From: a phage
Length of the DNA stretch: 64,000 nt
Direction: 5' to 3' (one strand)
Sequence record: NC_135730.1
The notes below the pieces were generated by a model. That model was given only the letters and a program-made list of their open reading frames with translations, had not been told where the DNA came from and searched no databases. Made by a program: the position numbers and the translations under genes. Positions 15,111 to 62,653 of this stretch are shown here, one piece after another. The stretch's first letter is position 1; every line of letters starts with the position of its first letter.

Positions 15111-17500
15111 TCTGCTCTTCCCCCTACCATAAACGGCCCTACCTGGCAAGTGGAATAATTGACGAGCCATCAATCCCACACACTGTACAAATATACATGT
15201 AAAATAGCTATTGCATAACCTTTCATTGTGTGGTAGCAGGGCTATTTTACCCGTTTTCCCTTCCAAAATTGCACGTAATGCCGCTATTGCACAAATTTTA
15301 ACCTGATGCAGATCTTCAATATCTTGTCAACAAATAAAAATTCTTATAAGTCATACACTTACACCAACACAAAAGCGTTTTCTACGTGAAAAATCGAGTA
15401 TAACTATAGCCGCCAGATCTCAGAATTTACGTACGCTCACCATTCTATAGCCTGCTAAGTATTTATTCCAACCATAGAATAATGGAATAGTCAATACCTG
15501 CATAAAATAATTATTCGTTTAAATTGCATAACATAAATCAGCCAGGGTGTCAACATTTTTCGTAAACAGTCCGAAATTATCGCTGTGAATTATCATAAAC
15601 AGAGAAATCTTTAGTCGTCTAATGTTTACTGTACGTTACTATACTGACTGGAATCATTAGATGACTAAGAGAAAGATAAGAAATAATTAACAATACAATT
15701 ATTTTATCTGTAACAATAAGGCAACTATGCAAACGAATGGCATGGCGCGACGGAGTCGCGACATAATATAAAAGCAGTAACCATCACCCCCGTGATAGTT
15801 TGTCTGCAATCTATTAATCAGATCATAGTTGCCTTGTATTTAGTTAATCATGACATAACAAGCAAGGCAACTATAGATCTTCTAATAGTTGCCCTGCTTT
15901 TATATTATGTCATAGAAACACCCGAAGGGGTGACCAAAGGTCACCTGGCATAGCCAGCGAAAGATTATTAACTTGCTAATCGTTATCATGCAAACGAATG
16001 GCATGGCTTATAATTTTTGAGCAAATAGTCTATACGTGAACAGTGAGGCATGCAATAGTAACAATTGTTATTATATCCAGTGTTTAGTATGCCCAGTGTG
16101 TCAAAGGTGTCTAAAGTGTCAGACAAGTTTTTCTCCTCTTTGTCAAGTGCTGCATGAAAAATTTACAATCTGGTATGGTAGCATTTTTGCGGCCCTGTTT
16201 ACATCCAGTTGTGTATGTATAACCCTTGTTGTGTGGGCGTTTAGACGTCTGGACGGTTGGAAGTCTACAGGTCAATATCTAATCTATCGGCTGCTAACTA
16301 TATCCCACACAAATAGTAAGAAATATAATTGTTATATGCGTAAACAGTAACTCATGTTATCAATCCCTGTATGTATCGCCAGTGGTGCGCATAATGGGTA
16401 TTATGTTAAATTGCCCGTAATGATAATGGTTCTCACAATGATATGTATTCTCATTCCCCCACACAAAATAGATTGCAAATGTTGTGCCACTATGTGAACG
16501 GCCTCACCTATTAATTTGCCTCACTGCCTCGATATTTGAGAATTGTTATAAGAATGAGAAGTATTCCCATTTCGTCCGCCTGGCAGCACTCCTGTCGGTC
16601 AGGTCAAAATCGTGGTATAACTGGACCTGTTCAGATATTTCTGGCTGACTCTTCAGGCCTGTGTGGGAAAAGCCGACCCCTCCGGCGGCGGGGAGGGGGT
16701 CAATTAAAAAATTTACGGGGTATATGAAGCGCTCTTCAGGTAAGGCAGGTATTATGGGATGAAACCCTCTTCAGGTAATGATATTTGTGGGTGTGATATT
16801 TGCTGGAAAGCCAGATATGACGGGACTCCCGGCGGGGCAGGGGTAGTACAGACAGGGAAAATATGGAGGATGTGGTTGGGTAAATTGATCAGACAGGTAG
16901 AGTATGGAATATGTTATGAATATGTTAAATATAGAGGTTGAATATCTGTAGGATTTGTGTGTAAAATCAAAGACTTAAGTGGTGTTGTGGTATTTTCTAT
17001 AAATAATTCAAGTTTAATAGGTGATATTTGTCCCTATCTACTTTGTGTGGTAAACAGATTCAGATGAGATTGGTTTACGAGTGTATACATAATATACAAA
17101 TTAAAGATACAAGAAACCCCCCTCCCCCTTCGGCTACCATTCACCTTTTCCTCTGACTGGTACTTAAACACTTATTCAGACTCTTCAGGTTATCACCCAT
17201 ATATCATATGGCAGTGACTGGTGTCCTCCGGCCCCTCTTTCGTCACCCGTCCGCTTCGCCATGCTAATGCCATAGCCAAATGTTCGGTTGTTCACCCTGT
17301 TCACTCAGGTGTATCTCCATACCCCTTCAAACCGAAGAGAACAGAAAACCCGAATTACTCGGTAAAAGAAAAGAGAAGAACTTAATTTTATCAGGATAGG
17401 CAAGAATGTCAAGGCATGACTGCTCACTAAACAAGCAAACAGTCATGTGTGGGAGGTAAGTGATTGTGGTGGTGGGAAATTTAGTTGAAAGATGTGCTAC
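15111..17500. other. 2.4 kb non-coding repeat-rich region at the convergence of the two transcription blocks
   Basis: no credible ORF with RBS; nested inverted repeats 15757-15915, duplicated atgcaaacgaatggcatggc, four ctcttcagg repeats, CCCCTCCCCC motifs. Confidence 0.6.
16672..16705 (-). terminator. candidate minus-strand terminator
   Basis: gacccctcc/ggagggggtc hairpin followed on the minus strand by GGCTTTTCC. Confidence 0.35.
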
Positions 17501-17541
17501 AGGTGCGCTTCCAGCACTTTAGCCGGGCAGCTAATTGTGTG

Positions 17542-17757
17542 TCAGTCCAGCGGTTCATCCTCTACTTCACTGAAATCAATGTTCATGGTCTCTTCCCAAC
17601 CATCGATCTCAGCACAAGAGTGGAGTTCTTTAGGGTTTACTCCCAAAGCCTCAGCAACAGAGTCTATATTTAACACCTCTGGCAGGTATGATTCATCGAA
17701 TTCAAGGTAAATCAGGCCACGAGTGTTGTCAGCTCCACCAAATATTTCTATCTTCAT
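17542..17757 (-). CDS. small acidic protein (family A-like)
   Basis: ATG at 17757 after AGAGGAG RBS; starts MKIEIF; within track ORF 17542-17823. Confidence 0.5.
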   Translation of the reverse strand: MKIEIFGGADNTRGLIYLEFDESYLPEVLNIDSVAEALGVNPKELHSCAEIDGWEETMNIDFSEVEDEPLD

Positions 17758-17877
17758 GAAATCTCCTCTGGAAATGAGAATGTGAACAGGGTTTATATGT
17801 TCCAATGCACTGGAATTATGCACGTTTGCCTCTTCAGGCCATGCTTTAGCATGAGGAACCTGTGTGGGCTCGGTGCT

Positions 17878-54703: not shown

Positions 54704-55054
54704 TCAGTAGATGTTTTGTTTAATCTCTATTCCAAACTTTTTAAACGAGTCAGCTGCAAGCATGAATTTACGAGCCGCTGATGGGTTAGAAGTATGCACG
54801 AAAATCTTCACGTTGTCAACTACAGGGGGCTTACCAAATACAAATTTTTCCTCCAACATAGATAGGCAATCGTACCCTTCGAACAACTCTCCAAGGTCGT
54901 TGTCCATGTGCCACTCAGAAACGCGTCTGTAGAGCTTTCTATTATCGTTAATAAAATCTATAAACTCGGAGGAATTCTTTAGCCAAACAGCGTCTTGGAG
55001 CCCGTAATTTGACGGATCTCTCAAGTCATCCAGCCACACAATCAACTTCTTCAT
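54704..55054 (-). CDS. hypothetical protein (possible flavodoxin-like fold)
   Basis: 116-aa track ORF; IVWLDDLRDP motif. Confidence 0.5.
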   Translation of the reverse strand: MKKLIVWLDDLRDPSNYGLQDAVWLKNSSEFIDFINDNRKLYRRVSEWHMDNDLGELFEGYDCLSMLEEKFVFGKPPVVDNVKIFVHTSNPSAARKFMLAADSFKKFGIEIKQNIY

Positions 55055-55986
55055 TGCATATAGTTCTCGTTGTGGAAATAGTAATCAAGTATCTCACGGC
55101 GTTCCTGCTCCAGGAGGCAGTTCCACACATCTTCTGTGTAATTGTTACGAATGAAGTTTACCATGCCGTAAAACTCTTCGTCAACACGTTTAAAGATATC
55201 ATCATCCCAAATCTTCCAAGCTTTACCCCTCATTACGGCCTTCCGTGCCAGGTAGTATGGAGACTTGATCTTCAGCTGCAGGTCATAAGGGTAGTAAGGC
55301 TTACGGATCATATACCCTTCGCCCATTGTTTCTGCAGCTAATTCTTTTGCATAGCTGAACGGGATTTCACGCACAGTGTGAGGACGTTTTGCACCAAGGT
55401 ATTTGGCAATCCCATCTAAAGCTGCTTCTGGTAGCATTATTCCAGAATCATTATATCTGCAACCTATCAAATATGCGCCATGGTCTTCTTGAACAATATG
55501 CGGATCTGAAGGGTGACAAATTTCAAACATGAATGTCATGTTTTCATTGCCCATAACCTTCTTGATAAGATCTAAATTACCACATTGCTCTTGGATGGTT
55601 TCCTTTGCAAGGTTACAATATGGAGAATCAAGAGACCCGGTTGTTGAGAACAATAGGTCACCTTTATGAGATGATACCACACCAAGGAATCCGTTCTTTT
55701 TCTCTACCGCCGTCACAAGCTTATTGTCAGGCAGGTTGGTGGAGTTTTCTCCCAAGTTAAACACTTTTGTGAAGGGCCATGCCACAACATTCCCTTCATT
55801 ACCTACAACAATGCCTCGGCACTCCAGCAGACGAGGAGACAAATGCCATAAATTGTTGTAAAATACTTTTCTGGCATATTTATAGATCTTTAATCCAAGA
55901 TCTGGGTAATATCTGCTGGTTACAAGACCTTTGTCAACTAGGTCGTCTGCATTAAAATACTTCATCATGCGTTCCTCATTTGTCAT
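55051..55986 (-). CDS. putative RNA ligase (Rnl1/Trl1-type nucleotidyltransferase)
   Basis: motif I KKNG, motif IV EGYMIRK, motif V LKIK; separate from the KLDG DNA ligase. Confidence 0.55.
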   Translation of the reverse strand: MTNEERMMKYFNADDLVDKGLVTSRYYPDLGLKIYKYARKVFYNNLWHLSPRLLECRGIVVGNEGNVVAWPFTKVFNLGENSTNLPDNKLVTAVEKKNGFLGVVSSHKGDLLFSTTGSLDSPYCNLAKETIQEQCGNLDLIKKVMGNENMTFMFEICHPSDPHIVQEDHGAYLIGCRYNDSGIMLPEAALDGIAKYLGAKRPHTVREIPFSYAKELAAETMGEGYMIRKPYYPYDLQLKIKSPYYLARKAVMRGKAWKIWDDDIFKRVDEEFYGMVNFIRNNYTEDVWNCLLEQERREILDYYFHNENYMQ

Positions 55987-56029
55987 TTTGTCAGTCTATC
56001 CTGCCACACAAATAACCTGGTGTCAACAC

Positions 56030-56058
56030 TTGAAATTAACAAAACAGTTGGGTATACT
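56030..56058 (+). promoter_or_regulatory. sigma70-type promoter in divergent intergenic region
   Basis: TTGAAA, 17 nt, TATACT; a TTGACA box for the minus-strand RNA ligase lies back-to-back. Confidence 0.55.
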
Positions 56059-56087
56059 ATCGTTGAAATTAAAACGGAGGATTACTA

Positions 56088-56497
56088 TGTCTAAAATGCT
56101 ATATATCGTGCGTGGTCTACCAGGGTCTGGCAAATCAACACTGGCAAATGCGCTATCTTTAGACGGTCTGTATCCACATTTTGAGAACGACATGTTCTGG
56201 TACGACGATGATGGAAATTATAACTGGGGTGCAAGTAAAGTAACACTTGCAGCAAAATGGTGCAAAGATAACGTAGAAGATATGATGCGTATGGGATACG
56301 ACCGTATCGTGGTAAGTAATACGTTTACAAAAGAAAAATATGTGCAAGAATATATTGACATGGCGATCAGTCATGGGTATAGTTATACCGTGATCGTGGT
56401 TGAAAACCGCCATGGTAATAAAAGCATTCATGATGTTCCAGACAGGGTTGTGGATCGTATGGAACGCCAGCTTAAAAACTGCATTAAACTTAAATGA
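56088..56497 (+). CDS. polynucleotide 5'-kinase-like P-loop kinase
   Basis: GLPGSGKST resembles T4 Pnk kinase domain GCPGSGKST; ACGGAGGA RBS. Confidence 0.6.
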
Positions 56498-56504
56498 GGA
56501 ATGT

Positions 56505-57059
56505 ATGAAATACTTTGTAACAAGCGACACACACTTTCTCCACCAGCGGGTCATGGAGTTCGATTCATGTCAAAAACACAGATCTCAGTATGATCACAAT
56601 CTTGACAGTATGAATGCGGGAATCATCACCAAGTGGAACTCTGTTGTGTCACCTGCAGACACTGTGTTTCACTTGGGAGATATTGCGTGCACTAATGATA
56701 AGAATATCAACAAATTGCTCCCAGATGTTCTAAATATGTTGAACGGACATATTATTCTTGTTCGTGGTAACCATGACACAAGGACGACTGTCAGAATTAT
56801 GAAAGAGTTCGGTCATGAGGTTGTAGATTATTACGAGCTTCGCCACAACAAGAATTTGATCTGTATGAGCCATTACCAGTTTGCAAAGTGGAACAGAAAG
56901 CCTCACGGATCAGTCCAACTGTTCGGTCATGCTCACGGAACCACACAGCAGTTGTTTGGCAGGCAGTTTGATGTCGGTTGGGATGTGTGGGGGAGACTCT
57001 TACCATTGGAAGAGGCATACCGTATTGCAATGAGTCTTGCTATTGACAGCGGGGAGTAA
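56505..57059 (+). CDS. calcineurin-like metallophosphoesterase
   Basis: ATG at 56505 (MKYFVTSDTHF) within track ORF; GDI, GNHD and HAHG metal-binding motifs. Confidence 0.7.
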   Translation: MKYFVTSDTHFLHQRVMEFDSCQKHRSQYDHNLDSMNAGIITKWNSVVSPADTVFHLGDIACTNDKNINKLLPDVLNMLNGHIILVRGNHDTRTTVRIMKEFGHEVVDYYELRHNKNLICMSHYQFAKWNRKPHGSVQLFGHAHGTTQQLFGRQFDVGWDVWGRLLPLEEAYRIAMSLAIDSGE

Positions 57060-57106: not shown

Positions 57107-57457
57107 ATGAAAGATGGGGATAAGCTGCTATATCTTAAAGTCCCCCTTGAAATACTGTCTATGTCAAAAGTTTTGAATGACACAACTGGGGAGGTTGTTG
57201 TTCTTGACTTATATGACAAGATCGTATACTGCTACCTGCACAACTGGTATAAGCTTGGAGGAAATTCACGCTTCACACCCAGCACAAGGAAAATTGCAGC
57301 AGATGTTGGGATAAAGAAAACAAAAGCAGCAGCGTGCGTTAAAACTTTAGAATGTGCAGGAGTGGTTGAAATATCCACACAAGGGAGAGGTAAAAGATGT
57401 ACATTTTCCAAAGTTTTGCCACCAGAAGAGGTTATTCGAATGTCAACAACTGGTTAG
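57107..57457 (+). CDS. hypothetical protein, possible DNA-binding protein adjacent to iterons
   Basis: 116-aa track ORF; CAGGAGA RBS. Confidence 0.55.
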   Translation: MKDGDKLLYLKVPLEILSMSKVLNDTTGEVVVLDLYDKIVYCYLHNWYKLGGNSRFTPSTRKIAADVGIKKTKAAACVKTLECAGVVEISTQGRGKRCTFSKVLPPEEVIRMSTTG

Positions 57458-57531
57458 ACCAGTAAAAACTTAAATATCTGTACTATAAGGATTAGTATGT
57501 TTTATGTTCGCTCTGGAACAGAGGTTAGTAA

Positions 57532-57760
57532 CTGTCCGTGATACGGACACTACTGTCCGTCACGCGGACACATCTGCCCGTAATACGGACACTAACTGTC
57601 CGTGATACGGACACATAAAGAATATAACTAAAATAACTAAATAATAAAAATAAAAGATCTAGTACTTATGGTACTAAGTACATATACTTAACTTATGTAG
57701 AATATACTAGATCCTAAGTACCATGTTTTAAAATTATTACTTACTATAGGTAGTGTCGGC
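57532..57760. promoter_or_regulatory. origin-like element: four palindromic iterons plus AT-rich tract
   Basis: CTGTCCGTgATACGGACAc repeated at about 57532, 57553, 57574, 57596 (21-22 bp period), then about 150 bp of AT-rich DNA. Confidence 0.55.
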
Positions 57761-58010
57761 CCTTCATTGGCACTCGCCTACGAGGGGCGAGATGCCGGGC
57801 CTCCTTGGTGCACACAATAACAGAAGTGCATACATGCAGGTCTGTTAACATGTGTGGGAGCGAAGCGATAGCGCAGGCCAAAGGCCGAGCACTGATGTGG
57901 ACCACCGACGAAAGCTTGCCAGCGCCGTAAGGAGTCGGTTGAGAGTCTCCCGCGCGAGCTTGGATGAAGTTTATGTGTGGAAACTGACAAGAAGGCCCCT
58001 AAATCGCTCC
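57760..58010. other. GC-rich structured segment (candidate ncRNA or cis-element)
   Basis: about 250 bp GC-rich island with many short hairpins; only a spurious-looking minus ORF. Confidence 0.3.
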
Positions 58011-58116
58011 ACAGCTATATAAACTATACCAGGTAATGCAATCGCACCAGTTTGATAGAAAAGCTCGTTACAAAGTGATACAGTGAGTTTTTCTATAACT
58101 TGAAGAGGAGGCAGCT

Positions 58117-58695
58117 ATGGGTTCACGCAAAGATGACCGTGAAAAGATTGCAAAACGTTATCAGAATGAAGAACAGATGGAGAAAACTTTCAAGTGGAAG
58201 CCTGGTTTCCAGCGTAATCATTCTAACGCTCGTGATCGTAAGCATCCGGATAAGTGGCTAACACCGCCAAATGATGGCATGCAGGTTGGTGATGAGAAGG
58301 AGATGTCACCTGGAAAAGATGGCAACTACATTCGCACTAAGGAAGCTGGTCCAAAGGATGACAGCTATCTTGTAGATAAGGTTCTTAATGGTATTGATGT
58401 AGATGTTGACACTGCACGAAACCTTTTTCTTGGTTGGTATCGTACAGGGTTTTTCGACATCAAGGCTATTCGTCGTGTTTGCGATATTAAAAAGTCTGCC
58501 TATGATGATGACTCCCTACATCGCACTCTGAGACAATACTCAGAGAGATACGGTCATCCAGTTATCACTCTTGACGATATTAACGAAGTGATGTATCATG
58601 CAGAGGTTGTTGCAGGTAGATTCGGTGATGCATATCTAGATATCCTTTCTGCAAAGGATGAGGTAATGTTAAATAAGATTTACTATGAACGCTGA
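58117..58695 (+). CDS. hypothetical protein
   Basis: 192-aa track ORF; AGAGGAGG RBS. Confidence 0.65.
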   Translation: MGSRKDDREKIAKRYQNEEQMEKTFKWKPGFQRNHSNARDRKHPDKWLTPPNDGMQVGDEKEMSPGKDGNYIRTKEAGPKDDSYLVDKVLNGIDVDVDTARNLFLGWYRTGFFDIKAIRRVCDIKKSAYDDDSLHRTLRQYSERYGHPVITLDDINEVMYHAEVVAGRFGDAYLDILSAKDEVMLNKIYYER

Positions 58696-58705
58696 GGGGT
58701 GCTTA

Positions 58706-58894
58706 ATGAACAATCCGGTAGCAAAGAACTGTACTAAGTTTAACAAGTCTGCGATTCACACTGACAGGAAAAAGGGCTGGTCTCCTGACATTGACGAGGA
58801 GCTTGAGAGTTACTTTGAAGACCTGGTCACTAATGCAGATGAGGTTGCGATTAAAGAATACGCAGACAGGAAGGATAAGGCCGGAATCTGTTGA
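58706..58894 (+). CDS. hypothetical acidic protein
   Basis: ATG at 58706 within track ORF 58685-58894; GAGGGG RBS. Confidence 0.5.
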   Translation: MNNPVAKNCTKFNKSAIHTDRKKGWSPDIDEELESYFEDLVTNADEVAIKEYADRKDKAGIC

Positions 58895-58970
58895 CAAAAA
58901 TAGTGTTACCTGATAAGATCTGCAATATGATGTGATGCAATTTTAACTTACGAGGTCTACAGGTAATGCT

Positions 58971-59213
58971 ATGTTTAAGGTTAAGCTCGTTTTTCGTTCC
59001 ATGAATGAGGATTATTTAGAAGATGAAGGTGAATTTCGTGCACTGGATGATGCAATAGATTTTGCCAACGATTTAGCTTGTATGAATACAGGTTATGGGC
59101 TATGTTGTTGGGATGGTGGTGTTCAGATCGGTGATAGCAAGATCTTCTACTTCTACCCTGAGCCTGATAACAAACAAATTAAGTATGTTTTATTTATTTG
59201 TGCTTTACAATGA
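58971..59213 (+). CDS. hypothetical protein
   Basis: 80-aa track ORF; TTGACA promoter at about 58893. Confidence 0.5.
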   Translation: MFKVKLVFRSMNEDYLEDEGEFRALDDAIDFANDLACMNTGYGLCCWDGGVQIGDSKIFYFYPEPDNKQIKYVLFICALQ

Positions 59214-59239
59214 GGTTGTTTTCGTGTATCATGATGAAT

Positions 59240-59500
59240 ATCCAATTTAAAGATGAATTTGATGGCTTTATCTCTGGATGCTTTGAAACAGGGTTCGGAG
59301 AAGGCTGAGTTCCCCTTAGAGGGCTTGATAGTGCACCACACTTAAAATGGTAGGGGCAGCCAGCACATGACGATGTGACCCCAGCCAACCTGTAACAAGG
59401 TCGAGCCGAAGCGCGGGTAATAGGCCTCTGGTAACCCACTTGGTGGGTCTTGCTGGTCCAGGACGCTGGACAAGTCGCAGGGAATACCACCCTGCGGCGA
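59240..59500. other. GC-rich structured segment (candidate ncRNA or packaging element)
   Basis: clean hairpins gtccag-gacg-ctggac and cgcaggg-aatacca-ccctgcg; no credible ORF. Confidence 0.3.
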
Positions 59501-59502
59501 AC

Positions 59503-59531
59503 TTGACAATCAGTATTTGCTATGATAAAAT
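59503..59531 (+). promoter_or_regulatory. sigma70-type promoter
   Basis: TTGACA, 17 nt, TAAAAT. Confidence 0.55.
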
Positions 59532-59559
59532 CCACCTATCACGTGATAATGGAGGAAAC

Positions 59560-59898
59560 ATGGCGGATACAACTAAAAAGCGTCGCCGTAGAGGCAGACC
59601 TCTGAAAGAGGAGTCCAACGCCATTCAGCTAGAGAAGAACATCCTTGATATGAAGGAATCTTTTATAGCGATGGTTCCAGAAGCTCACAAAGTTTTAAGA
59701 GAGCTGATGTTGGACCCGAAAACCAAACAAAATATTCGTCAAAGCATTGCAGAGTATGTTCTTGATAAGGCAGACCGAATGCAGGAAGAATATGATGAGA
59801 TGTTTGGTGAAGAGGAAGAGGTGGTAGTGGAAGAGGCTGAAAAACCAGCACCTTTTATGCCATTTACTACAGAAATACAGCCTGTTAGCAATAGCTAA
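59560..59898 (+). CDS. putative terminase small subunit / DNA-binding protein
   Basis: ATG at 59560 after AATGGAGGA; basic N-terminus KKRRRRGRPLK, acidic C-terminus; upstream of terminase large subunit. Confidence 0.4.
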   Translation: MADTTKKRRRRGRPLKEESNAIQLEKNILDMKESFIAMVPEAHKVLRELMLDPKTKQNIRQSIAEYVLDKADRMQEEYDEMFGEEEEVVVEEAEKPAPFMPFTTEIQPVSNS

Positions 59899-59994: not shown

Positions 59995-60069
59995 GCCCTG
60001 TTAGCTTAGTGGATAAAGCAGCGGCCTTCTAAGCCGTTGACACTGGTTCGAGTCCAGTACGGGGTGCCA
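59995..60069 (+). tRNA. tRNA-Arg (anticodon UCU)
   Basis: manual cloverleaf; anticodon loop CTTCTAA; T-loop GGTTCGAGTCC; CCA present. Confidence 0.7.
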
Positions 60070-60073
60070 AATT

Positions 60074-60160
60074 GGGGAGTTATCCCGTAGAGGTAGCGGT
60101 GTAGACTGTAAATCTATTGTCATTGCGACTCGGGTGGTTCGACTCCACCACTCCCCACCA
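60074..60160 (+). tRNA. tRNA-Tyr (anticodon GUA), type II
   Basis: acceptor GGGGAGT/ACTCCCC; loop CTGTAAA; long variable arm; T-loop TTCGACT. Confidence 0.7.
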
Positions 60161-60274
60161 AATTTATATTTTTAGATGCATAAATAATACAGATAATGGC
60201 ATTGATATTTATCGTCGTTTATACTAGTCACTAACTGCTCGAAAATCAGTGTCATTATCAGTATAATTTATAAA

Positions 60275-60365
60275 GGAGGGTAGGGAGCAATGGTGCTCAA
60301 GCGGTCTTGAAAACCGTCCCGTTGAGGATGACTCGATGATGGTTCGATTCCATTACTCTCCGCCA
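60275..60365 (+). tRNA. tRNA-Ser (anticodon UGA), type II
   Basis: anticodon arm CGGTCTTGAAAACCG matches E. coli tRNA-Ser as recalled; long variable arm. Confidence 0.75.
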
Positions 60366-60463
60366 CATTGTTGACCTTGTAATTAAGCGAAAGCCGGAAG
60401 CAGAACCGGATTATCAAATGTTACAGTCGTCATCGCCGACTAGCAACATGGTCAACATACTGA

Positions 60464-60562
60464 GCTAGGTAAGCCCTTTGGCAAGGGCGAGGATTTTTAA
60501 TCCTGAAAATAGACGAGGTAGTCGTTGAATACATAGGTGGTTCGATTCCATCGCCTAGCACC
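60464..60562 (+). tRNA. atypical type-II-length tRNA-like gene, anticodon ambiguous (UUU or UAA)
   Basis: good acceptor, D and T arms; anticodon stem only 4 bp; about 29-nt variable region. Confidence 0.4.
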
Positions 60563-60567
60563 TTTTT

Positions 60568-60643
60568 GCTGATGTAGCACAATCGGTAGTGCAATTGATT
60601 TGTAATCAATAGGTTGTAGGTTCAAGTCCTGCCATCAGCACCA
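60568..60643 (+). tRNA. tRNA-Thr (anticodon UGU)
   Basis: all four stems pair cleanly; loop TTTGTAA. Confidence 0.8.
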
Positions 60644-60644
60644 A

Positions 60645-60719
60645 GGCCCTGTAGCTGGAAGGTTCAAGCAAGCGACTCATAATCGCCAGACGGTGGTTCA
60701 ATTCCACCCAGGGCCACCA
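60645..60719 (+). tRNA. tRNA with CAU anticodon (Met or lysidine-Ile)
   Basis: acceptor GGCCCTG/CAGGGCC; loop CTCATAA; T-stem GGTGG/CCACC. Confidence 0.7.
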
Positions 60720-60730
60720 AATAGTAAATA

Positions 60731-60807
60731 CTCCGCGTAGCTCAGCTTGGTAGAGCGCCTGATTTGGGATCAGGAGGTCGAGTGTTCGAATCACTCCGTG
60801 GAGACCA
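60731..60807 (+). tRNA. tRNA-Pro (anticodon UGG)
   Basis: C1:G72 first pair typical of bacterial tRNA-Pro; loop TTTGGGA; clean cloverleaf. Confidence 0.8.
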
Positions 60808-61911: not shown

Positions 61912-62336
61912 TGTCTAAGATTTACGGACCGTGTTCTGAAAAGCAGAAGATGATCCTCGAAAACGATGCAGATATTTTGGTAATCGGCGGTGCCGCAGGG
62001 TCTGGCAAGTCGTTCCTCTTGCAGTTGATGCCGCTTAAAATTATTGATGACCCCCACAGCTCTGTGGTTATGTTCCGAAGAACAACCCCACAGTTGGAAG
62101 GTGAGGGTGGGCTATGGCCTAAAGCAGTAGCTATTTATAGTGATCTGCCTGAAAACATTAAGCCAAAGTTCAGAGAGAAGGATCATAAGTTCATTTTCCC
62201 ACGGTTTGATCCGAGCACTGGCAAGTGGGATAGAAGCAAAAAGGGAGCTGTTGTAAAATACTGCCACATGGAGTATGTCCAAGATAAGCTTAACCATCAA
62301 GGTCTTGAGTACACCATGGTTTGCTTCGATGAGGGT
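61911..62336 (+). CDS. terminase large subunit, exon 1 (ATPase domain)
   Basis: Walker A GGAAGSGKS, Walker B MVCFDE; ends at intron 5' splice site. Confidence 0.8.
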
Positions 62337-62653
62337 TAATTTGTAGCTCTCGTAAAACCTCCCTAATTGCGGGGAAATCTTTACTATTAATACCACCAAC
62401 CTGTCATGGTAACATGATAGAGGCTTCGAAGAGAGATCGAAGGTATGGTAACAGTGTGTTAATTTAGATAATCCGCAGCGAAGCATCCGAGAGGATGAAC
62501 GTTCAACGACTAGTCGAAAGACGTAGAATCAAGCGATTCGAAACGGGAGGGTAAGCGGTTGTTGTCGCTTATAAGATATAGTCTGGTCTGCATGGAGACA
62601 TGCAGCTGCCTGAAAAATGGCGGGGCAAGACTAGCGACCTTGCCCGAACATAG
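62337..62653 (+). mobile_element. ORF-less group I intron in terminase large subunit gene (3' boundary +/- 3 nt)
   Basis: all four core elements in order: P AAUUGCGGGGAAA (about 62364), Q AAUCCGCAGC (about 62470), R GUUCAACGACUAG (about 62501), S AAGAUAUAGUCU (about 62573). Confidence 0.75.

Follow-up and report, generated by a model that had tools for sequence, protein, structure and literature searches.

Two unrelated structured non-coding elements in an rV5-like phage: a probable small RNA gene and a probable component of a replication-origin module

The DNA analysed here is a stretch of 64,000 nucleotides from phage sequence record NC_135730.1 (hereafter the window), and its subject is two islands rich in guanine and cytosine (GC), island 1 at 57756-58015 and island 2 with its conserved part at about 59307-59500, which an earlier note had picked out from the letters alone as structured, non-coding and probably RNA. 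We consider it likely that both are functional, folded, non-coding elements of the + strand belonging to two unrelated families, island 2 being a small RNA gene and island 1 part of a replication-origin module. Both are conserved in relatives with their helices, strand and genomic contexts, and in both the relatives show compensatory base changes, the covariation check that had been named beforehand. Neither island has the defining features of any described family that could be tested here, and both appear to be undescribed; searches of the literature on the sequences, on vs.8 and denV, and on rV5 non-coding RNAs or satellites found no description, a catalogue of 10,006 candidate phage RNAs (PMC10690425) not having been compared.

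Results

Detection of the islands and search for known families

In 200-nt sliding windows, GC content peaks at 0.60 over 57725-58056 (island 1) and at 0.58 over 59257-59570 (island 2), about 4.6 and 4.1 standard deviations above the mean of the window (0.4255; standard deviation of 200-nt windows 0.038), and these are the two highest GC peaks in the 64 kb, in agreement with the earlier remark that the islands are GC-rich relative to their surroundings. The lack of credible coding potential was likewise borne out: island 1 holds no open reading frame (ORF) above 70 amino acids on either strand, and those over island 2 are either short or continue into the gene that follows. In most of the 118 rV5-like GenBank records the islands carry no annotation, while a few records call small hypothetical ORFs. 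The extent of about 250 bp claimed for each holds for island 1, but only some 190 nt of island 2 are conserved, the first 65 nt of the segment originally noted (59240-59306) being a leader or a small ORF that is absent in more distant relatives. The gene context is as it had been described, with three small genes between the islands and the transfer RNA (tRNA) and terminase region beyond. The treatment of the islands as a pair was not sustained; they show no similarity to each other and are unrelated.

A known RNA family had not been recognised by eye, and a search of Rfam was equally empty. At the gathering threshold, none of the 4227 models of Rfam 15 (including riboswitches, ribozymes, GOLLD, ROOL, drum, c4/CI, abiF, 6S and tmRNA) matched over either island, short queries of each island gave no match at E values up to 10, and the same models run over ten homologous loci and a plasmid returned nothing on the elements. 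ARAGORN placed no tRNA- or tmRNA-like gene inside the islands, all seven tRNAs lying at 59995-60807. The idea that the islands might be degenerate ribozymes is left without support, as no Rfam ribozyme or intron model matches either of them; the group I intron core P3-P8 (RF00028) is absent from both and has its sole match in the window at 62327-62605, where a real group I intron lies.

Island 2: a covarying core domain

A degenerate pattern found 66 loci in IMG/VR, three or four of them chance matches according to a later model search, and 40 distinct core sequences were aligned (alignment A3) as the basis of the pair counts; the motif is defined by a covariance model, R1. These 40 sequences define three helices: a closing helix Px, hairpin A and hairpin B. 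Px consists of one pair, one bulged purine on the 3' strand and then three to five pairs; in the window these are A59387-U59421, bulged A59422, and (last two digits given) C86-G23, C85-G24 and G84-C25. Hairpin A has the form ACCU-GUAAYA-AGGU, and the short hairpin B (C-R-A-G-N...N'-C-G-G) is followed by a linker, GGUAA. Of the cells counted over the alignment, 89.8% were paired, compared with 27-40% in slid controls, and double-sided changes occurred in 73 cells compared with 27.5 in shuffles, none of 500 shuffles reaching as high. The three Px pairs nearest the junction are paired in 39 of the 40 sequences with 11-20 double changes and up to five pair types, and the second pair of hairpin B (columns 26-33) is also paired in 39 of 40, with 11 double changes (C-G, U-A, G-C). 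Because Px lay outside the search pattern, the evidence from it is unbiased, and because the G.U pairs of the core occur in the + strand orientation only, we take that strand to be the functional one. About 20 nucleotides of the core are invariant. Model R1 has a single strong match in the window (59381-59428, 54.9 bits, E 4.6e-18); in L042 it picks up a second copy that had escaped the pattern, and it finds nothing at T4 rnaC/rnaD (L075 8909-9172) or in the plasmids described below.

In every lineage a stem, P1, lies 5' of Px and encloses an internal loop and a small hairpin, P2, and the internal loop can pair with the tail 6-11 nt past GGUAA, probably forming a pseudoknot. Pairing of P1, P2 and the pseudoknot is complete in 14 lineages, which use 12, 10 and 10 different helix sequences, respectively; in the window the three helices are GGGG/CCCC, CACAU/AUGUG and GCCAG/CUGGU. 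One sub-lineage has changed GGGUA/UACCC to GGGAG/CUCCC, and between rV5-type and L062-type Vequintavirinae CCAG/CUGG becomes GAGG/CCUC. The parts of island 2 and the sites that frame it, all on the + strand, are as follows.

59204-59232: sigma-70-like promoter TTTACA-17-TATCAT, which could start the island 2 transcript
59307-59500: island 2, conserved probable RNA gene of about 190 nt, delimited by alignment of rV5-type and more distant Vequintavirinae and framed by promoter-like sites
59310-59352: 5' module with CCC-UUAGA-GGG, CUUGAUAG and UGCACCACAC, identical in distant Vequintavirinae
59353-59432: core domain of 80 nt, from the R1 match and the pair counts
59353-56 with 59379-82: P1
59357-63: J1
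59364-68 with 59373-77: P2
59384-87 with 59421 and 59423-25: closing helix Px
59388-59401: hairpin A
59402-59416: hairpin B
59415-20: GGGUAA
59428-32: 3' strand of the putative pseudoknot
59435-59495: 3' hairpins CCCAC-UUG-GUGGG, GUCCAG-GACG-CUGGAC and GCAGGG-AAUACCA-CCCUGC
59503-59531: strong sigma-70-like promoter TTGACA-17-TAAAAT with TG (11/12 matches), for the next gene, at the end of the island 2 unit

Relatives L062, L066 and L070 carry a TTGACA-17-TATACT site immediately 5' of the conserved RNA, and the L062 type has a second, similar module 3' of the core. The middle 3' hairpin covaries in L054 (GCUCAG/CUGAGC), and the promoter-like site at 59503-59531 is conserved in all Vequintavirinae aligned. 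The hexaloop of hairpin A (GUAAUA/GUAACA) we take to be identical to the loop of 23S ribosomal RNA (rRNA) helix 44 (the 1095 loop); no wider similarity to that 23S rRNA domain was found.

Island 2: distribution and gene context

A sensitive BLAST search with island 2 as query recovered 118 rV5-like phages over the full length and about 400 T4-like genomes over a 44-nt core (59381-59424) at 85-89% identity, and the copy of Pseudomonas phage PsgM04F, used as query, recovered 991 records, nearly all through the same core. Most of these roughly 990 matches are records of T4-like, Klebsiella, Edwardsiella and Pseudomonas phages, in which the core is 86-94% identical over about 40 nt. When 185,579 bacterial and archaeal species, each represented by one genome, were scanned with a strict pattern, a single weak match (26 bits) came up, and E. 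coli genomes gave no match to island 2 or to the 44-nt core, a result that rejects a host origin; from these near-empty scans we conclude that the family is essentially restricted to virulent phages.

The T4 copy lies between denV and vs.8, about 6 kb from the T4 tRNA cluster. Throughout the T4-like phages the motif stands some 95-110 nt 5' of vs.8 (in a few, about 500 nt), even where the vs.8 proteins share only 34-45% identity. In RefSeq T4 (NC_000866 64253-64912; L075 2254-2913, - strand) the vs.8 coding sequence exceeds that of other T4-like records by about 120 nt at the 5' end, and since this extension is the conserved RNA motif, the T4 vs.8 start codon has probably been mis-assigned. 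The other T4-like records lack the extension and the copies differ by 1-nt insertions or deletions, and for these reasons we regard the T4-like core as non-coding. Family searches with vs.8, a small protein, gave a generic P-loop NTPase signal and no informative family match.

Outside the T4-like phages, a co-oriented tRNA gene is found 46-600 nt away in most lineages, which include Pseudomonas, Phapecoctavirus-like and uncultivated phages. In PsgM04F the core sits between tRNA-Thr and tRNA-Gly, and in the window tRNA-Arg starts 575 nt 3' of the core on the same strand. In at least 14 non-T4-like lineages the RNA is followed by a tRNA gene or stops at an intrinsic terminator; the latter is the case in L058, where the copy begins 46 nt past a tRNA. 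In the Vequintavirinae, including the window, the promoter-like site separates the RNA from the next gene, and no downstream protein is common to the island-2-type loci.

Several further observations were made at these loci. Two copies of the core, in tandem or one gene apart, occur in Edwardsiella phage PEi20 (L008 1994-2151), Klebsiella phage PKO111 (L009 2000-2568) and L042 (830-961). In PsgM04F and Phapecoctavirus-like contigs (L004, L015, L022, L040, L045, L056) a long-range stem, GUUGUGA...UCACAAC, brackets the motif, and in the same contigs recurring AAGAGCAYU and AGUGCUCUU could pair into long duplexes that join neighbouring RNA units, and are possible processing sites; no simple pattern captured the repeats that bracket the motif in the Phapecoctavirus-like contigs. 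Within a cluster of more than 10 tRNA genes on IMG/VR contig 3300042010_000030 (L058 3351-3396, + strand), the segment AGGUGGGCUUAGAAGCAGCCAUCCUUUAAAGAGU matches part of the large-subunit rRNA model (22-27 bits, E 4e-5), namely the L11/thiostrepton site in the GTPase-associated centre with its 1067-loop hairpin, and we read it as a phage-borne rRNA mimic. On contig L023 (3624-3655, - strand) an abiF RNA (RF03085, 45.4 bits; gathering score 37) shares its phage tRNA region and its strand with an island-2-type motif, and may be a phage-carried antitoxin-like RNA. A PeSL cassette is defined as a simple terminator hairpin followed by an early promoter, TTTACW-17-TAYWAT (PMC4122927); we considered it for the T4-type copies and rejected it, as these have no early promoter in register and their conserved part is a multi-helix domain.

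Island 1: a conserved hairpin element beside iterons

Island 1 is the most conserved stretch of its region among rV5-like phages. In ten rV5-like sequences conservation sets in abruptly at GTCGGCCC (57756) and is near-complete to about 58005, and the island remains near 100% conserved even in L076, an IMG/VR relative with 83% identity in the neighbouring protein; a protein-based search of IMG/VR for neighbours of island 1 gave one locus only. In the window, a Rep-like gene, iterons, an AT-rich stretch and island 1 follow one another, and the features are as follows.

57529-57614, no strand: four palindromic iterons of 21-22 bp, TGTCCGTNAYRCGGACA, found by repeat search at spacings of 21, 21 and 22
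57615-57745, no strand: AT-rich stretch (about 30% GC, from composition), presumed DNA-unwinding element
57756-58015, + strand: island 1, conserved multi-hairpin element
57758-57801, + strand: hairpin H1, GGCCC..GGCA-CUCGCC(U)-loop-(G)GGCGAG-UGCC..GGGCC
57829-57856, + strand: predicted hairpin H2, CAUACAUG-12 nt-CAUGUGUG, its 3' arm overlapped by a UGUGUGG motif from 57851
57904-57939, + strand: stem-loop S1, ACCGAC ... GUCGGU around invariant GAAAGCUUGCCAGCGCCG
57943-57955, + strand: near-invariant block GAGUCUCCCGCGC (consensus GAGNCUYCCGCGC), in all phage and plasmid copies
57950-57981, + strand: hairpin S2, variable in sequence and length between elements, with several G.U pairs in the phage
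57996-58015, + strand: conserved CCCCUAAAU, then small hairpin S3 (GCU-CCAC-AGC)

The iterons are annotated as a repeat_region in phage nom. The iterons of the window, of L076 and of the plasmid L083 (described below) are mutually unrelated, yet each array stands 5' of island 1, and the order of iterons and island is the same in L076 and the plasmids. In L076 the AT-rich stretch is replaced by an unrelated A-rich sequence.

Covariation in island 1 comes chiefly from comparison of the phages with these plasmids. H1 differs from its counterpart in L083 by two compensatory double changes (GGCA/UGCC to GUCA/UGAC, and CUCGCC/GGCGAG to CUCUCC/GGAGAG). The S1 helix exists in three versions, ACCGAC/GUCGGU, GCUGCC/GGCAGC and GUCCGGAU/AUCCGGAC, with double-sided change at four of the six pairs, a score reached by none of 500 shuffles, and its closing pair runs through the series A-U, G.U, G-C. 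S2 appears in the plasmids as GCGUGC/GCACGU, GCGCCC/GGGCGU and GCGCUC/GGGCGU, and S3 as GUC/GAC in L076 and GCC/GGC in the plasmids. H2 is retained in Murica and typing phage 5 despite an 18-nt deletion just 5' of it. On inspection the substitutions between phage and plasmid are not codon-like, and in 10 of 13 homologues the + strand gives a better fold than the - strand.

Plasmid-like relatives of island 1 and the TGTGTGG motif

BLAST of island 1 against E. coli genomes gave matches in small plasmids, and PLSDB added more, of 13.2-13.7 kb. The records are listed here.

NZ_CP020521.1 (L083, 13,689 bp)
NZ_CP035869.1
CP148565.1
CP134895.1
NZ_CP178698.1
NZ_CP043822.1 (39.6 kb, apparently a trimer)

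Two metagenome contigs of 13.9 kb, L157 and L188, also carry the island; they come from a scan with a loose pattern in which 3 of the 120 loci listed were real, and the contig counts are thus a lower bound. The gene set of these circular E. coli elements of 13-14 kb comprises a major head protein, a Dit-like protein, tape-measure and neck proteins, and a Rep-like winged-helix initiator with iterons, and it lacks both a replisome and a terminase. Capsid proteins of 140-150 kb myoviruses are only remote relatives of theirs, and the Rep-like proteins of phage and plasmid both match replication-initiator PHROGs. From their gene content, the elements look like phage satellites or mini-phages; we found no publication on them. 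An iteron-like site in the plasmid capsid operon (BLAST E 0.064) was not confirmed by a mismatch-tolerant search and was dropped as chance.

A short motif recurs in phage and plasmids. The window holds 13 copies of the octamer TGTGTGGG, where 1.8 would be expected, 7 of the 13 lying within 15175-17868, and the heptamer TGTGTGG occurs 15-17 times per 13.7-13.9 kb plasmid (L083, L157, L188) against about 1.3 expected. In many cases a short GC hairpin follows the motif, and most copies point the same way as transcription leading away from the iterons. Island 1 itself has its hairpins punctuated by two TGTGTGG copies (57851, 57974) and a related ATGTGGA (57895); as to likeness with a DnaA box, TGTGGA(A/C) amounts to half a box only. 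The stretch 15270-17540, an ORF-poor region of about 2.3 kb with a single ORF (104 amino acids, GTG start), contains a local GC peak and two short matches to the plasmid family and may be the 'non-coding' box drawn in the rV5 genome paper.

Genomic setting

The stretch at 57.4-60.0 kb shares 99.5-99.8% identity with Escherichia phage PDX and with records labelled 'Campylobacter phage D1/D#', and 95-99% with some 115 further rV5-like phages (genus Vequintavirus). Annotated relatives give the gene order as RNA ligase, polynucleotide kinase/phosphatase, phosphoesterase, a small 'replication initiation protein / transcriptional regulator', a repeat region and small hypothetical genes, and further on seven tRNA predictions, spanins and the large terminase gene. 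The neighbouring features in the window are listed below.

55051-57059: RNA ligase, polynucleotide kinase and phosphoesterase (tRNA-repair-type set), directly 5' of the Rep gene and islands
57107-57457, + strand: small winged-helix/helix-turn-helix protein of 'replication initiation protein' PHROG families (PHROG 12838, E 2.5e-80; PHROGs 8102, 428 and 270)
58117-58695, 58706-58894 and 58971-59213: three small genes separating the islands, from the ORF list and relatives
59560-59898: fourth small gene, 3' of island 2
59995-60807: seven ARAGORN tRNA predictions, five well supported in Rfam, one marginal in Rfam and one with an irregular 4-base anticodon
62327-62605, + strand: group I intron splitting the large terminase gene (RF00028, 84.1 bits)

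The protein at 57107-57457 matches Pfam HTH_36 and DUF6945 only below cut-offs, and relatives annotate it as a replication initiation protein or a transcriptional regulator. Beyond the tRNAs come spanin-like genes and then the intron-split terminase gene, whose group I intron had previously been reported for rV5 (PMC3606486).

Discussion

Weighing the readings

That the islands are ordinary sequence, whether small protein-coding genes, mobile-intron remnants or chance GC-rich spacers, seems to us very improbable. Such a reading could draw on the small ORFs called over them in some GenBank records, on the extension of vs.8 across the motif in RefSeq T4 and on the presence of a true group I intron 3 kb away; however, the substitutions in the helices are compensatory and not codon-like, copies differ by 1-nt insertions or deletions, the ORFs are not conserved, neither the intron model nor any other in Rfam matches, and conservation is higher than in the neighbouring genes.

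Island 2, as we read it, would be a gene for an RNA of about 190 nt, transcribed probably from the site at 59204-59232 or by read-through and ending before the 59503 promoter. Its central 80 nt would fold into the P1/P2 hairpin with its internal loop, followed by a three-way junction of Px, hairpin A, hairpin B and the linker GGUAA. The RNA may be made and matured along with the phage tRNAs as a stable RNA, and it may work by binding some component, protein or small molecule, of the machinery for translation or RNA processing; T4-like phages have probably recruited this fold as the vs.8 5' leader. The T4-like arrangement also lends itself to a different account, in which the core is in general a cis-acting leader of the downstream gene, riboswitch-like or a protein-binding translational operator, and not a free small RNA. 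Every T4-like locus has the core 5' of vs.8 over deep divergence, a second conserved segment and a ribosome-binding site come after it there, and a three-way junction with a pseudoknot is a common aptamer architecture. We nevertheless regard this as possible but less likely for the family, as a strong promoter-like site stands between the RNA and the next gene in the window and in all Vequintavirinae, the downstream protein is not shared among loci, and in the 14 or more other lineages it is a tRNA or a terminator that follows. Less probable still, and in our view quite doubtful, is a self-cleaving ribozyme or other processing element that cuts polycistronic transcripts of the tRNA region: the position within tRNA operons, the compact junction-plus-pseudoknot fold with its invariant nucleotides and the frequency of several small ribozyme classes in phages would suit it, but no Rfam ribozyme model matches a 291-nt query even at E values up to 10, and no cleavage site is identifiable from the sequence.

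For island 1, the position beside iterons in phages and plasmid-like elements points to a replication origin rather than to packaging. The arrangement, to judge from the sequences compared, fits a variable initiator with its iterons joined to a conserved structured module, an origin component that would act after opening, either as an origin-proximal transcript (a primer or a former of R-loops) or as an exposed single strand for priming or helicase loading; the 13-14 kb elements may retain the module because the same factor is used. It could instead work purely at the level of DNA, as a single-strand initiation (ssi) signal like ssiA/ssiB of RSF1010 or the G-site of R1, or as a pac signal copied by a satellite from its helper, a reading we hold to be a real but lesser possibility. 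Iterons, an AT-rich stretch and hairpins stand in this order at the ssi-carrying origins of RSF1010 and R1, no promoter was detected 5' of the island, and the element is common to a 137-kb phage and to 13-14 kb elements that have capsid and tail genes and lack a replisome, ten units of which would approximately fill one rV5-sized head, one record being a trimer. On the other side, the G.U-type pairs and the better folding of the + strand favour RNA, and with regard to pac in particular, the tRNA and terminase region is 1.6 kb and four genes away from the island, which in every element is paired with an iteron array and not with a terminase gene. A T7-like promoter 5' of island 1 (ACTTACTATAGGTAG) was considered and rejected, its positions varying among close relatives and the stretch being absent in L076; rV5 is not known to have a single-subunit RNA polymerase.

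Several points weigh against the interpretation of the islands as a small RNA gene and an origin module. Transcription, processing and all functions of both are matters that we infer. Single-sequence folding is only modestly better than that of shuffles (z -2.55 and -2.11 for islands 1 and 2 at the coordinates originally noted, -1.19 for trimmed island 2), and the decisive support is therefore comparative and not thermodynamic. No terminator was found 3' of either island in the window, and no clear sigma-70 promoter directly 5' of island 1. The pseudoknot of island 2 is short (3-5 bp), and since a blind duplex-energy test against shuffles supports it only modestly (mean z -0.56, p 0.002), we treat it as probable and no more. 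The two contexts of the core, always before vs.8 in T4-like phages and in tRNA clusters elsewhere, suggest different modes of action for one fold. Within the rV5-like phages island 1 shows no covariation, and the structural support for it thus comes from few plasmid lineages; its data, moreover, do not discriminate between RNA and single-stranded DNA.

Comparison with known systems

Island 2 resembles its nearest analogues in context only, and island 1 resembles its own in logic only. The parallel drawn earlier with the small RNAs of the T4 tRNA cluster, rnaC and rnaD (species 1 and 2), holds for context, as these too are small structured RNAs co-oriented with phage tRNA genes and presumably on the same transcripts; it fails in substance, for they share neither sequence nor core structure with island 2, and in T4 R1 is found only 5' of vs.8. 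GOLLD, ROOL and drum RNAs are likewise phage-borne, highly structured and often adjacent to tRNA genes, whereas island 2 has no Rfam match, its core is far smaller (80-95 nt), and it belongs to virulent myoviruses of Gram-negative hosts, T4 among them, with bacterial genomes essentially devoid of it.

Island 1 resembles ssiA/ssiB of the RSF1010 oriV and the G4-type G-site of R1 in that conserved hairpins come immediately past iterons and an AT-rich stretch, but it is much longer (260 nt, at least five hairpins) and its G.U-type pairs favour RNA; we know of no sequence similarity between island 1 and ssi signals. ColE1 RNA II and the T4 oriF/oriG transcripts offer another parallel, a structured or R-loop-forming origin transcript with helices kept by compensatory change, although those origins work without Rep and iterons, and at island 1 no promoter, RNase H site or RNA-DNA junction was identified. 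As small elements with their own initiator and iterons that would depend on a large helper phage, the 13-14 kb elements recall the Vibrio PLE with ICP1 and P4 with P2; unlike in those systems, the putative helper-satellite link between rV5-like phages and the plasmids is drawn from shared sequence motifs. On our analysis, sharing of a cis-element of the helper would explain the presence of island 1 in the plasmids.

Implications

A broader proposal, which we put forward as a tentative one, covers both islands. The island 2 core could represent a new functional RNA class of virulent phages (T4, rV5-like, Phapecoctavirus-like and Pseudomonas phages), serving as a decoy or effector against host translation, RNA repair or anti-phage defence, or as a new ribozyme or aptamer; phage tRNA clusters would then be hubs for such RNAs, a notion suggested by the related contigs whose clusters also hold an abiF antitoxin-type RNA and a mimic of the L11-binding hairpin of 23S rRNA; and island 1 would mark an unrecognised helper-satellite pair, rV5-like phages and the capsid-encoding plasmids of 13-14 kb, with an origin-linked RNA in common.

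With respect to the phages themselves, the finding places a covariation-supported RNA domain, so far unannotated, in the well-studied T4, between denV and vs.8, where RefSeq has vs.8 coding. The domain recurs in about 1,000 phage genomes, usually next to tRNA genes, and so provides a testable handle on why phage tRNA regions carry extra stable RNAs. Island 1 is the first sequence-level candidate for the hitherto unmapped replication-origin module of rV5, and it ties rV5-like phages, which find use in biocontrol and therapy, to a family of small plasmids that encode a capsid and may be their satellites, a connection that bears on phage production, host range and gene transfer.

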